Assembly: GCF_037042905.1 (NCBI RefSeq)
Contig: NC_087251.1
Location: 13,394,001 to 13,458,000, forward strand
Direction of reading: 5' to 3'
From: Lytechinus pictus
Lineage: Eukaryota
Length of the DNA: 64,000 bases
The notes beneath the pieces are model-generated. The model worked only from the letters and a program-made list of their open reading frames with translations, searched no databases and had not been told where the DNA came from. Shown in pieces: positions 52,391 through 60,670 of this stretch. The position numbers and the translations under genes were made by a program. Positions within the stretch are counted from its first letter, which is position 1. Each line of letters opens with the position of its first letter.

Positions 52391-53682
52391 ATAATTTGGC
52401 GACAATGACTCCTGAAAAGATGATTCTTATATACAGGGGCGGATCAGCTGCTCGAATAGCTAAAATTCGAGTTGGTTGTAATAACCAAAATAAAGTAATA
52501 TTTTAAACTTTAATTTTAAATACCAGATTAACATTATCATATTACAGTCTAAAGAGATTGTGAGCACGAAACGTGAGCGGAAGTATGCCTACGCATGAAA
52601 AGGGACATATTAAGCACATTTTGTATTACAATCGTGAACAAGATAAAAATGTCTAATTTCATCAAAGTAATAATGGTATACTGATCCCAAAAAGTGTTGT
52701 TGCAAGAATGGATATGATATATATGTATGACACTAAAGAAAAAGGCGTCGTGCATCTCAGTATGCAAATCTCGAGCTCGTTTTTTTTTTACATGTATACT
52801 CAACTATACGCAAGGGACGGAAGTAGGATAATTATATACTTTCATCAAATATAACAAGTGGAACGCCTCTAGTAGTCTCGCCTTCATTACGCGATTCGAT
52901 ATAGCAGCAGTGCATTGAAAACAGCTATTGAATAATTATTCACAAAAGAAAACACTCATAAAATTATGATGATAAAATACTTGACCCAACATGACCATTG
53001 ACCATGATCATGACTGTGACCTACGACGTGTAAAAAACATACTTGATTACCCTTATGTCTATATGTTTCATGAAATACATGTGTAGAGCCAAACTTTCTA
53101 AGTTATGATGCCAATTCAAAATACCCCCAACACGGCCAAAGTTCATTGACCTTAAAATGCCTTTAATATTGGTCATGTGAACTGAAACACGCACAGGATA
53201 TGGCAGGGATACATGGTTACTCTTATGTCCAAGTTTTGTGAACTCAATAAAAAGTAATGATGATCGACAATTCACAAATATAACCCAACATGGTCAAAGT
53301 TCGTTGACCCAAAGTGACCTTTGACCATGGTCATGTGACCTGAAACTCAGGCAGGATCTTCAGTGATACACTATTACTCTTATTATGTCTAAGTTTCATG
53401 AACTAGATCTATATACCGGTAGCTTCTAAGTTTTTACGACATTTCAAAAACTTAACCTTGGTTAAGATATATTGATCCCCCAACATTGTCTAAGTTCATT
53501 GACCCTAAATGACCTTTGACCTTATTGATCATGTGACCTGAAACTCAGGCAGGATGTTCAGTAATACTTGATTACCCTCATGTCCAAGTTTCATGAACTA
53601 GGTCCATACACTTTCTAAGTTATGATGACATTTCAAAAACCTAACCTTGGTTAAGATTTCAATTTTGACGACGCCGCCGCCG

Positions 53683-56278
53683 CACAGTGGGCCAGAATGA
53701 ACCCAAAGTGCGCCAAAACCCATTATTCACACATTTGTATGATTAAATTTGGTAGATAGGGGTAATTTCACCCGTAGAATTCAATAAAAGTATTTTCAAA
53801 TATTGATGACGTCGTTAAAATACTGTTTTCTGATTGGCTGTTAACATTTGAGCAGAAATTACATGTTTCTAATTCTACAATAAGTTTCAAATTTTCAGAA
53901 ACAAGTTTTAGATAAATTTCAGCAATAATTAAGCATATTAGCAAACAGCAAACACAAAAAAAGGCAACCAAACCAGAAAAGTCTGTGCTCGGGGTACAAA
54001 TAATTCAATTGGTGACTTGAGTATCGCTTAAAGAGGGCGCCCTACCATGAATCCGGAATTGTACAATTCAAAGTGAAATTGTAAAAAAAAATGAAAAGGA
54101 GTATTCTATTCCCTGTGTACAATGATTAACCACACCTACATGAAATAAATTGGATTGATACCAGAAGTGGACAGTGAAATCGTTAAAATAATGATTCCAG
54201 TGATTAGAGGCCGGGTCCTCTGCAGGTTAATCAGTACAAGGCCCTACAAGGCCTACCTATTTCACCAAGAACGGCGCATACAAAGTTATTCCGAATCAGA
54301 GTCTCTCTCTACTATCTCAACAACTATTATGTCTTTGGTGAGAGTATCTTTTAGCATACTTTGAACATCAGAGGGAAGAGGCTGTGATTGTTGTACTCTT
54401 AAAAACTTCAACTAATCACAATGTCACATGTTAACATTAGCCTGTGGAATACATATAAAGTCAATGAGAATCATAAACCAAACAATCCTTTAAATGATAA
54501 TATACACTTCCTTCTTGATCGATACTAACAATTATAGCAAATTTAGAATGAGCCACGAGATAAACGAATTCATACGTGTATGTGAAGTTACAAACCCTTT
54601 TGGGGGATAAATACTAATAATGAAAATGCAACTTATACATGACATATAGAGCCCACGTATATCCCACCACTGTCCAATACACATTTTCATATTTTGTCAG
54701 AAAACTGCGAGAGACCTATCACATCCCTAGTCATGTGTGTTATAGCGATATACAGTAGCCCCTACTTGGTTTATGAACAACAAACCAAACATATAATCTT
54801 ACCCGGGAATCTTACCTTAAGAATTAATCTTCTCAGTATGACAGCATATCAAATATGGAACACGGGATGGAACAGTTTGGCATCAAAATGAAGTTGCGTT
54901 ACATGTATTATTATATAGTTAGTGGAATTGGAAATGAAAGCTTGCCTTTACGTATGTTTAACGAAAATATTTTAAAGGCAGACACCAGTGACAAGAGCCA
55001 CACACTTGAGCCAGACACCCCCCCCCCCCCTCTCTCTCTCTCTCTCCCAGAACGCGACGGGGAGTTTGATGTTTAAAGGAGAATGAAACTCTTGGAGCAA
55101 GTTAGCTTTTGTGAAAGCAAAAAAATCAAAGAATAAGATCAACAAAAGTTTGAGTAAAATAGGACTAGCAATAGAAGAGTTATGAGCATTTGAATGTCGA
55201 GATCACTAATGCTATGGAGATCCTCCCATTGGCAACGCAACCAAGATCTATGATATCACAGATGAACAACTCTCCCCTTTTGGACACTGAAAATATACCC
55301 CAAAACATCTCTTTTTGCTCATTCTAATCATATGACAAACGATTCATCAATGATATAATGTTGTGAAACCTCTGTACTTGTCCTCTCATAAAGAGAACAC
55401 CTCACCTTGTGATAGATTCTATAAAAGTGAGAATATAATTGAAATAAGTACTAAAGCAATGAGGGAGTTGTACGTGTGTGACATCACAGATCTTGGTCGC
55501 ATTGCCAATGGGAGGATCTACATGGCATTAGTGATCTCAATATTCAAATGCTCATAACTTTCTTATTATTCATTCAATCTTCCTCAAACTTTCAACAATA
55601 TGTTTCTTTGTTTTTTCTCTTTGATATGGATTCAGCTGGTTTCAAGGGTTTCATTCTCCTTTAATGTCACCCGCAACGTTCGGCATGCACGCGCATAATG
55701 GGACAGTAACTTGGAACGATTTTTGTGATAAAATACGGCGAACATGTGGTTGGAAAATTGGTTATATCTCCAGGAAATGCACGTATATGCAGCTAAATTT
55801 GGTATCAGTGTAAAGCATGAACTATAACAAAGACCGCCATGGTATTTACAGCGCAGCAATCGGCAGCAATTTGTAAAAGAAATGCTCATGAAAAAAAAAT
55901 TGCTAAAAACCCCCCATTGTCAAATGGTTTCGTCCAAAATTGCCTCTGAAGGGATTATCATTTTATCTTGAAAATCTTTGATCACTTAAAAAAATTATTC
56001 ATCAAAGAGCACCGTGAATTAGAAATAAATTAAGTAATCCGTTTTGTTAAAACAGTGAAATATCTAAAACGTGTCATTTACACATGCGGTAGCCGTAAAG
56101 AGTCATTTTCCGGTAATATTGAATAAAAATGGGCAACTAATATTAAATTTAATGGAGAAATATTGAACGGAGGCATTCTACAGGTTCTTATCTTTGCTTA
56201 GAACATGAAAAAAACCAAATTTGTTTCATGACCAAAAACCAGTTTTGGCGCACTTTTGCTCTCTCCTGGCCCACTGTG
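53683..56278. mobile_element. Non-autonomous Transib/RAG-transposon-type element with RSS-like termini
   Basis: CGCCG|CACAGTGGGCCAG ... CTGGCCCACTGTG|CGCCG: exact 5-bp TSD (53678-82, 56279-83); 37-bp bipartite TIRs (53683-53719, 56242-56278) sharing AAAGTGCGCCAAAAC. Confidence 0.88.
55077..55660. mobile_element. TTAA-flanked MITE (Kolobok-like AGG termini) nested in the Transib-like element
   Basis: ttaa|aggagaatgaaac ... gtttcattctcct|ttaa; about 80-bp internal inverted repeat (gttatgagcatttgaat...gatcctcccattggcaa / ttgccaatgggaggatc...attcaaatgctcataac). Confidence 0.9.
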
Positions 56279-56948
56279 CGCCGTCGGAAAAGCGGCGCCT
56301 ATTATAGTCTCGCTCTGATATGCAGGCCAGACCAAAATGTGAGTGCAGAGCGCGAGGTGGCTTTTATAATTGACCTGAAAATGGGAAAATCAGTTAATCT
56401 CATTTTGTAATCGTGAATACGATACGTACAGATGCGTCACAAAACAACCTGACAAGGGAGATTTTTTAAAAAAATGTAGAAATTCGCGAACTTCATACAT
56501 CTCACTATACAAATCAAAGGCAAGCGCATAGTGCGAAAATCCCCAAGCTATTGCTATTTGAACGATATCAGCAATAAAGAGGAACCAATAATACATTTTG
56601 GTTCGTCACCACCGACATGTAAAATTTGGTCTGCACTGAATATCATAATCATCTTGTCCTACCCAAATTCGTCCTTTTTTTTCGGAACGCTTTCCCCATT
56701 CAATGTTTTTTTTTTTTTTGCAGATTGATTCCACCCACAGGCAATCGTCCTGAGGTACGTGGTTGTAAGATGACGATGATGGCGCTATCAAAATAAGAAG
56801 AAAGTACATTATTAAATTTCTGTTGATCCACCTAATTTTTTTGTGGCCCCCCTATAATTTTGGTTGAAACCCTTTTTCTTTTTTTGCTTGTCCAATTATT
56901 TACCTGTGTCCATCCCAAAATTTCAGGTGGACCCCCCCCCTAAAATGT

Positions 56949-58598: not shown

Positions 58599-60670
58599 TA
58601 GTCCAGGATAGGCCCCATAGAAAATTGACCAAACCTTGTTTTTTCATTATATACAATACTTTTTGCTGGTTTCTTGTCAATTCGAGGGTGCTGATTACGA
58701 ATCTGAATGATGCCACTAATGTAACCTTGAGCACTTTCCGCAAATTGGCAAAATCCAATATGGCCGCCAAAATATGCAAATTTCCCATGAAATTCATAAA
58801 ATTGCCTGCATATTTGCTATAAAATGCATGAAATTGTGTGGCAGGAGTGAAATACTCTCTGAAAAAATAGTTTTTGACAAACTATATATTTTCTGGATAT
58901 TCAAAATGGCCGCCATAGGCCCCTGTATACTCTATTATGTACAATATAGGGAAAACTATAATTTTCACAAAAATTAGCACTAAACTGCAAGAATTGTGAA
59001 CGAAGTACTCACGGTATGCAAATCATCATCATGAGATATATCATTTATTTTGTCATGTATGGGAAAATTGCTGTATTTTGATATTTAAAATAGCCGCCAC
59101 TGACCCAAACAGTATAATACAATTGCAATGGGGGCCAAATAATTCACAAGAGTGAGCACTAAAATGCATAAATATTAAGATAAACGAGTGGAATACTGAC
59201 TATAAAACAAAATTGTTAGCGAAATATATTATTTAATATGCCATGTATGTGATAAATGCTGTATTTTAAAATTCAAATGGCCGCCATAGGCCCTATATTT
59301 ATTATGTACAATGCGAAAGGAGAAACTAATTTTCACAAGAGTAAGAAACATGAAATGCATGTAATATTGTCTGAAAACATGTTTTCTAGCGAGACATTTC
59401 TTTTGTCATGTATGAGATAAATGCTCTATTGTGAAATTCAAAATGGCCCCTATTGGCCCTAACAGTATTATCTACAATGTAAATGGGGACATAATAATTT
59501 TGTAAGAATTTGGATTTGCTTGACTAGGACATCCATATAATCCTGTTGTATGAGTAAAATACTATTTGAAAACATAATTTTCATGAATTATAGCATTTCT
59601 TCTGCCATGTAGGTGATAAATATTGTATTTTGACATTTAAAATAGCCGCTACAAGCCCTAACTAAATTATGTAACATGCGTATAGGGAAACTAATTTTCA
59701 CAAGAGTGAGAATCATAAAATGCATGTAACTGTGATGTACGAGTAAAAATATTGTATTAAACATGTTAAACATGATTTCTAACTACATATTGGTCATGGA
59801 GGTAATGTTGTTCTTTGAAATCCAAAATGGCTGCCATAATGTACATTGTAACTTGGGACATATAATTTTGACAGAATTTGGCTTTGCTGGGCTCTAAATA
59901 TTGTATATTGGGATGTTAGGGTGACATTGTCTAAAACCATGGTTCCTAACGAGATATAGCATATCTTGTGTAATTAAGTTGATAAATGCTGCATAGGCCC
60001 TTTAGATAATTTTACAAAATGACATATGGTGGCCATTTTGAATGTTGAAATGTCGTATTTATCACCTAAATTATATAAGATATGATATATTTTGTTATAA
60101 ATCATGTTTTCAGACAATATTTCACTCATAATAATTATATACAATACCATTTAGTCAAGCAAAGCCAAAATCTGTTGAAATCATTTGTTCCCATTCACAT
60201 AATAAACCGTAAGGGCCTGTAGTCCCCTGTAGTGGACTTGACTTTAAAAATACAGTATTTAACACTTAACTTGCAGAATAAATGATATATCTTGTTAGAA
60301 ATTATGCTTTCAGACAATTTTACTCATGGATCACTATTACTTGCATTTATGGGCTCACTCCTGTGAATATTGGTCTCACAGTTTGCATTATACATAATAC
60401 AGTCAATGTCTATATGGCAGCCATTTTGAAAGTCAAAATAAAGTATTTAACACAAATTTGAAACCTGAATGATATATTTCGTTAAAAATCTGTTTTTTTT
60501 AGACAGTATCCCATTACTTTATCACATAATTTATATATGCATTTTAGTGCTCACTCTTGTGATTTCTTTGGTCCTCTTTCTCATTGTATATAATACTGTT
60601 AGGGTCTTTTGCAGCCATTTTGAATATCAAAATACAACATTTATCACATACATGGCACATTAAATATAGA
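58599..60670. mobile_element. Foldback-type element with ~185-bp subrepeats (direct, then inverted); TAG start suggests Academ-like
   Basis: Starts TAGTCCAGGATAGGCCCCA; units containing aaaatggccgcc at about 58.9, 59.08, 59.27, 59.44, 59.63 and 59.82 kb, then the reverse complement gccattttga at about 60.03, 60.42 and 60.61 kb. Superfamily is inference. Confidence 0.6.

Follow-up and report, generated by a model that had tools for sequence, protein, structure and literature searches.

A mobile element whose two ends resemble the 23-RSS of V(D)J recombination raises, in a sea urchin, the question of what kind of transposon it is and which enzyme would act on it; to our knowledge, sea urchins, being invertebrates, lack V(D)J loci. 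The element lies in a 64,000-nucleotide stretch of the Lytechinus pictus genome, which was analyzed as a whole and is referred to here as the window. It is very probably a copy of a non-coding, non-autonomous transposon of the Transib superfamily (family A), about 2.0 kb in length, which reaches 2.6 kb in the window via a nested insertion of 584 bp. Membership in the superfamily is assigned from the hallmarks of the DNA, from which we also infer the enzyme and the chemistry.

Ends and internal structure of the element

A preliminary description of this DNA had reported ends formed by the heptamer CACAGTG, a 23-nt spacer and a nonamer-like box, together with bipartite terminal inverted repeats (TIRs), and both features were confirmed (Table 1). 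When the two ends are aligned, the terminal 13 nt are identical (CACAGTGGGCCAG), the next 9 differ (AATGAACCC on the left, GAGAGAGCA on the right), and the following 15 are again identical (AAAGTGCGCCAAAAC). In the notation used for the family, the ends are CACAGTGGGCCAG...AAAGTGCGCC. In the window copy, CCAAAAC is found 23 nt past CACAGTG at both ends, and the right end (reverse complement of 56240-56278) reads CACAGTG, 23 nt, CCAAAACTG. Counted position by position, the match to the nonamer ACAAAAACC is 7/9 at the left end, as previously stated, and 5/9 at the right end. A repeat search of the window returned both TIRs as one inverted pair (I2), and exact matches to the 13-mer and the 15-mer are present in the window solely at the two ends of the element, the chance expectations at up to two mismatches being 0.65 and 0.19, respectively.

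Table 1. Positions of the element, its parts and related loci. Unprefixed positions are those of the window; a prefix (C1, C3, C4, C182) denotes a contig.
Feature	Position	Strand	Description
Whole element	53683..56278	+	2,596 bp; non-coding, non-autonomous, probable Transib-type copy of family A; delimited by similarity to other copies
Left target-site duplication	53678..53682	.	CGCCG; identical 5 bp at 56279-56283
Right target-site duplication	56279..56283	.	CGCCG; read from sequence
Left TIR, 37 bp	53683..53719	+	read from sequence; paired by inverted-repeat search
Left TIR, heptamer	53683-53689	+	CACAGTG
Left TIR, conserved hexamer	53690-53695	+	GGCCAG; adjoins heptamer
Left TIR, end-specific 9 nt	53696-53704	+	AATGAACCC; left-type 9-mer found again among genome-wide matches
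Left TIR, conserved box	53705-53719	+	AAAGTGCGCCAAAAC
Left nonamer-like box	53713-53721	+	CCAAAACCC; 23 nt after CACAGTG
Right TIR, 37 bp	56242..56278	-	minus-strand reading CACAGTGGGCCAG-GAGAGAGCA-AAAGTGCGCCAAAAC, then TG
Nested insertion, 584 bp	55077..55660	.	palindromic, MITE-like; ends AGGAGAATGAAAC / GTTTCATTCTCCT; inverted repeats I1 and I3; missing from 12 other aligned copies
Host repeat H	52852..53682	.	degenerate tandem repeat of ~190 bp; stops at the insertion site, runs on for ~60 bp past the element (56279-56338)
Family B, example loci L064-L066	C1:623296, C1:4567691, C3:77654564		
Intact RAG1L frames, L056 and L057	C4:15670800-15680700, C182:12400-22300		last exons of 624 and 612 aa

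The proposed duplication CGCCG flanks the element on both sides. Because the left flank consists of a GCC-rich repeat, a single duplication of this composition would carry little weight. Its length of 5 bp is established by the complete copies examined, all 19 of which are flanked by an identical 5 bp.

The window copy contains no open frame longer than 95 aa and no Rfam match, and no Pfam signal was obtained in the element. A profile built from 40 RAG1/RAG1L proteins likewise gave no RAG1-like signal in the six frames, in any copy of the family, or in the rest of the window. The element is thus non-coding and non-autonomous. A run of C followed by a (CT)n microsatellite is located within it at 55018-55047, just upstream of the nested insertion.

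The nested insertion accounts for the window copy being ~590 bp above the standard length. In the alignment it appears as a 588-nt insertion private to this copy; the remaining 12 have the unoccupied site GTTTGATG-TTTAA-TGTCACC. The tetranucleotide TTAA is duplicated at 55073-55076 and 55661-55664, with TTTAA or TA as alternative readings. Long inverted arms inside the nested element measure 159 nt and are 79% complementary. The summed depth of this stretch in public contig runs is very high, and the nested element is therefore probably abundant in the genome.

A family with a strict target, spread through the genome

The assembly (811.7 Mb, 368 contigs) was searched with a pattern consisting of the terminal 13 nt, any 9 nt, and the 15-nt box, and with the same pattern reversed as a control. 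This search with the TIRs, which the preliminary description had advised, returned 215 exact matches (107 forward, 108 reverse), while the reversed control returned 0 and 0; the matches are far beyond chance, and they include the right-type 9-mer GAGAGAGCA again. Ends were paired by coordinates, in our own reading, among the first 100 matches listed, which gave 40 plus/minus pairs and 20 single ends. Among these 40 pairs, 24 measure 1.83-2.10 kb, 10 measure 2.1-2.8 kb, including the window copy, and 6 measure 3.5-9.2 kb, a typical copy being ~2.0 kb long. Every pair that was read in sequence combines one left-type 9-mer (AATGAACCC or a one-base variant) with one right-type 9-mer (GAGAGAGCA or a variant), which fixes the polarity of the element.

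Complete copies were represented by 12 rebuilt from paired loci, the window copy, and 6 long copies. Their 5-bp duplications are always CGNCG; all four possible forms were seen (CGCCG, CGGCG, CGACG and CGTCG), and no duplication of another length was encountered among the 19. Some of these copies are segmental duplicates: L024-29 is one locus present three times with identical flanks, and L031/L032 is one locus present twice with flanks 99.5% identical. The 19 copies thus correspond to ~16 independent insertions. At the level of single ends, CGNCG flanks 176 of the 215 (67 CGCCG, 67 CGGCG, and 42 CGWCG, i.e., CGACG or CGTCG); one of the remaining 39 (L006) is flanked by TGCCA.

Pairwise divergence among 13 aligned copies ranges from 0.1 to 7.7% with a median of 5.4%, and the distance to the majority base is 1.8-4.5% (3.2% for the window copy). 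Nearly identical copies are present at unrelated sites, e.g., L004/5 and L014/15, which differ by 0.6%; L018/19 and L020/21 are 1.6% apart and have different duplications. Because copies at unrelated sites are so similar, movement was recent relative to the overall spread of the family; family A has spread relatively recently.

Host repeat H, into which the window copy is inserted, was delimited by self-matches and by matches to the flanks of 7 other family loci. Eight of the 19 loci, the window included, occupy the same position of this repeat, while the flanks of the other 11 are unrelated. At the same site the element is present in reverse orientation in L012/13 and L033, so that the element must have entered this favored site several times independently, as opposed to one composite having been copied. 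A second, shorter version of the repeat that lacks the tandem part is located at 58632-59277 of the window, 2.4 kb downstream, and the summed depth of the repeat stretch is 10^5 to 10^6 in two public runs. Public reads (four runs, short contigs) contain joints across the element with just 20-28 letters on the shorter side. The best reading of these joints is that they stem from paralogs of the host repeat which the element does not occupy; since both the flank and the nested element are high-copy repeats, the joints have no bearing on polymorphism or excision.

Shortening the inner box of the search pattern revealed a sister family of ~1.2 kb, family B. It has the AAAGTGCGCCAAAA box and the same terminal 13 nt as family A, with a different internal sequence. 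Its ends read CACAGTGGGCCAG-AATGAGTTG-AAAGTGCGCCAAAAT and ...GGCGAAACA-AAAGTGCGCCAAAAG, and it is flanked by CGWCG, with at least 93 ends flanked by CGACG or CGTCG. Two additional genome searches for other end types sharing both boxes gave 3 and 7 matches, all of them variants of family A or B. Common to both ends of both families are the heptamer, the next 6 nt (GGCCAG), and AAAGTGCGCCAAAA; the free positions are ~9 central nt and the final three of the "nonamer". GGCCAG and the 3' half of the "spacer" (AAAGTGCG) are kept at either end and in either family, so that a heptamer and a nonamer separated by a free spacer would be too simple a description of the ends. This pattern of conservation suggests that the regions contacted by protein are likely to be the terminus and a box centered ~30 bp inside.

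Candidate sources of the transposase

Transib transposases are DDE enzymes of about 700 aa, encoded by autonomous partners which have the same ends. In the proposed mechanism, a RAG1-like DDE transposase supplied in trans would bind both 37-bp ends, using the CACAGTG heptamer where cleavage occurs and the AAAGTGCGCCAAAA box, which lies some two turns of the helix further in. Excision would be followed by reinsertion via a staggered 5-bp attack on the palindromic CGNCG target, which would generate the duplication.

The preliminary description had inferred an autonomous partner in this genome and advised a search for long copies that encode Transib or RAG1L, with or without RAG2L. Six long pairs were read whole (L031-L036, 3.5-9.2 kb), as was the central 2-kb piece of a pair on contig C19 that spans 6.2 kb; the reading left out pairs on C17 (3.1 kb), C31 (9.3 kb) and C13 (10.8 kb). 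No such copy was found among the long pairs read, and these were rejected as autonomous copies: they represent the 2-kb element broken at differing positions by foreign nested elements. The insert of L035 includes the tail of a Penelope-like reverse transcriptase with a weak GIY-YIG match, that of L031/32 is a non-LTR-like fragment, and those of L033, L034 and L036 are non-coding DNA. The middle of the C19 pair is non-coding and unrelated.

The RAG1 Pfam model PF12940 gave 19 matches in the genome and a RAG1L C-terminal query gave 26. All of these are RAG1L genes or pseudogenes, with no family ends at the 19 PF12940 matches, and they were rejected as the autonomous partner; echinoderm proteins are the best matches to the RAG1-like proteins of the assembly. 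In searches of protein libraries for a Transib transposase, the best 150 of 486 matches and 40 word-index matches were all RAG1 or RAG1L. Four low-identity candidates were rejected also, their PDB match being RAG1L and not Transib. An autonomous partner was thus found neither among the long copies read nor among the RAG1-core matches, in a search that is blind to a canonical Transib transposase: sea-urchin RAG1L reaches the solved Transib transposase (PDB: 6pqn) with only 25.5 bits over just ~100 residues, and for this reason the failure to find such an enzyme is not evidence of its absence.

The genome does contain two or three intact convergent RAG1L-RAG2L pairs, on C4 and C182/C233, in which RAG2L ends in a PHD finger. 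The translated RAG1L frames on C4 and C182 end in a C-x2-C-x3-GH-x4-C knuckle, and no GRPR/K motif was seen in the RAG1L translations. Neither family ends nor any CAC-type inverted pair with a 5-bp duplication were detected in the 9.9-kb stretches around eight RAG1L loci, and flanking inverted repeats of any kind were not seen in the stretches around the intact frames L056 and L057. Contigs C182 and C233 and the surroundings of C4:15.67 Mb contain none of the 176 ends flanked by CGNCG. A single CACAGTGGGGCCAAC... end near a RAG1L pseudogene (L058:3318) lacks both a partner and a CGNCG flank, and was set aside as a relic or a chance match. At C9:18152600-18177300, C-terminal fragments of RAG1L form a tandem array of at least 7 units; spaced by ~2.4 to 4.1 kb, the units are 52-56% identical to the intact gene, and each contains one stop codon.

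Based on these observations, it could be argued that this young family, which numbers more than 100 copies, lacks a canonical Transib source in the genome and is instead mobilized, or excised and policed, by the resident and apparently domesticated RAG1L/RAG2L. The intact gene pairs and the lack of an autonomous Transib among the paired ends are compatible with this proposal, as is the consensus RSS heptamer with a conserved block at the position which TR2 occupies in the ends of RAGL transposons (PMC10629977); 5-bp duplications are also made by RAGL transposons. In RAGL-B, however, the heptamer is followed by an adenine-rich TR2 that is bound by the CCGHC tail of RAG1L, and the passages of that study which deal with amphioxus indicate that an enzyme with such a tail binds TR2 and not the nonamer (PMC10629977). 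The block in the L. pictus ends is GGCCAG, which is not adenine-rich, while the RAG1L knuckle described above is a tail of this type. The absence of family ends from the surroundings of the RAG1L genes argues against the proposal as well. We consider it unlikely, since the apparent lack of a Transib source reflects a limit of the search and is not a result.

A source in some other superfamily of DNA transposons, with CAC ends and short duplications that arose by chance, is more doubtful still. No transposase is linked to the ends and the superfamily is called from DNA hallmarks, which leaves this reading some room; but 5-bp duplications set Transib apart from the other eukaryotic DNA-transposon superfamilies known in 2005, according to the text of the original definition (PMC1131882), and only in the Transib/RAG group are the heptamer, the 23 nt, the A-rich box, the 5-bp duplication and a GC-rich palindromic target found together. 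It is also highly improbable that the copy number reflects segmental duplication of a composite of host repeat and element in place of transposition. The shared host repeat and the multiplied loci L024-29 and L031/L032 point in that direction, and segmental duplication does add some copies. It fails to explain the family, given the unrelated flanks of most loci, the four different duplications and the insertions into the host repeat in opposite orientation, and as sole explanation it is largely refuted. A non-autonomous Transib therefore remains the preferred reading.

The element in itself is a matter of routine repeat annotation, and its value is practical. Its family spread recently, has ends in which the RSS heptamer is exact, keeps to a strict CGNCG target, and occurs in an animal which has RAG1L and RAG2L genes. 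We know of no DNA substrate of the sea-urchin RAG1L and RAG2L genes. The ends of the family offer ready-made substrates for assays of cleavage by RAG-like proteins of echinoderms or by a Transib transposase. If RAG1L/RAG2L cut them, these ends would be the first natural DNA substrate of the sea-urchin RAG-like genes, and the idea of RAG as a guardian against Transib (PMC8355894) would become directly testable.

Comparison with Transib, RAGL and V(D)J ends

The preliminary description had placed the element in a Transib/RAG-like family, in agreement with the CAC-initiated, RSS23-like ends on both sides and the 5-bp duplications documented here. As defined by Kapitonov and Jurka in 2005, in the portions of that paper that describe the termini, a Transib end of 38 bp consists of CACAATG, a variable 23-bp spacer and AAAAAAATC; in the RSS heptamer positions 1-3, and in the nonamer positions 5-6, are kept, and the targets are GC-rich and sometimes family-specific (PMC1131882). 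The same text lists sea-urchin Transib1_SP, with the duplication CGGCG, and the non-autonomous TransibN1_SP, so that, as the preliminary description had stated, non-autonomous Transibs of sea urchins were already known (PMC1131882). The symmetric 23/23 arrangement, which the preliminary description had ascribed to a possibly undescribed family, is the norm and no novelty, because the published definition has RSS23-like ends on both sides in most Transib families (PMC1131882).

The L. pictus family resembles the non-autonomous elements described there (TransibN1_SP of the purple sea urchin and TransibN1-3_AG) in the ~38-bp end found at both sides, with its CAC heptamer, spacer of ~23 bp and A-rich nonamer-like box, in the 5-bp duplication and the GC-rich, palindromic, family-specific target, and in the lack of coding capacity with many copies (PMC1131882). 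It differs in that its heptamer is the exact RSS consensus CACAGTG and not the Transib consensus CACAATG (PMC1131882), that the target is CGNCG, and that conservation reaches into the "spacer", parts of which are common to both ends and to two families. The GC-rich palindromic target CCANTGG, reported by Linheiro and Bergman in 2012 for Drosophila Transibs, has the same form as CGNCG, i.e., a palindrome with a free center (PMC3276498). In the sections of Martin et al. (2023) that concern echinoderms, Transibs with intact ends are recorded in numerous species, and no transposition-competent RAGL element is known to these sections (PMC10629977); the relevant passages of three papers report that RAGL ends were not found in echinoderms (PMC10629977, PMC9885083, PMC4411706).

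With RAGL transposons (amphioxus ProtoRAG/RAGL-B and Ptychodera RAGL-A) the family has in common the CAC heptamer, a GC-rich 5-bp duplication and a conserved block adjoining the heptamer and, with RAGL-A, an AT-rich nonamer-like box (PMC10629977). Unlike RAGL transposons, in which convergent RAG1L and RAG2L lie between the ends, the family has neither RAG1L nor RAG2L between its ends and no copy matches the RAG1 profile. The block adjoining the heptamer is not rich in adenine, and the symmetry of the ends contrasts with the 10-bp asymmetry of RAGL-A ends (PMC10629977).

The likeness to the 23-RSS itself comprises CACAGTG, a spacer of 23 nt and, at positions 3-6 of the nonamer, an A-tract, in addition to the nonamer matches given above. 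In V(D)J recombination, the RSSs form an asymmetric 12/23 pair flanking gene segments. Both ends of the L. pictus element are of the 23 type and hence do not make up a 12/23 pair; what they enclose is a mobile element, flanked by a duplication, and not gene segments.

When compared across these hallmarks of the DNA, the family fits Transib on every point tested and RAGL solely on features common to both groups. Resemblance to the RSS is how the Transib group is known, and the find is real but largely ordinary. A text search of the literature with the 13-nt terminus CACAGTGGGCCAG gave 3 unrelated matches and no relevant one, and family A may be new, as judged against the descriptions, and not the Repbase or Dfam sequences, of known families. 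Further details of the family are the strict CGNCG target and the hot spot in one satellite-like repeat.
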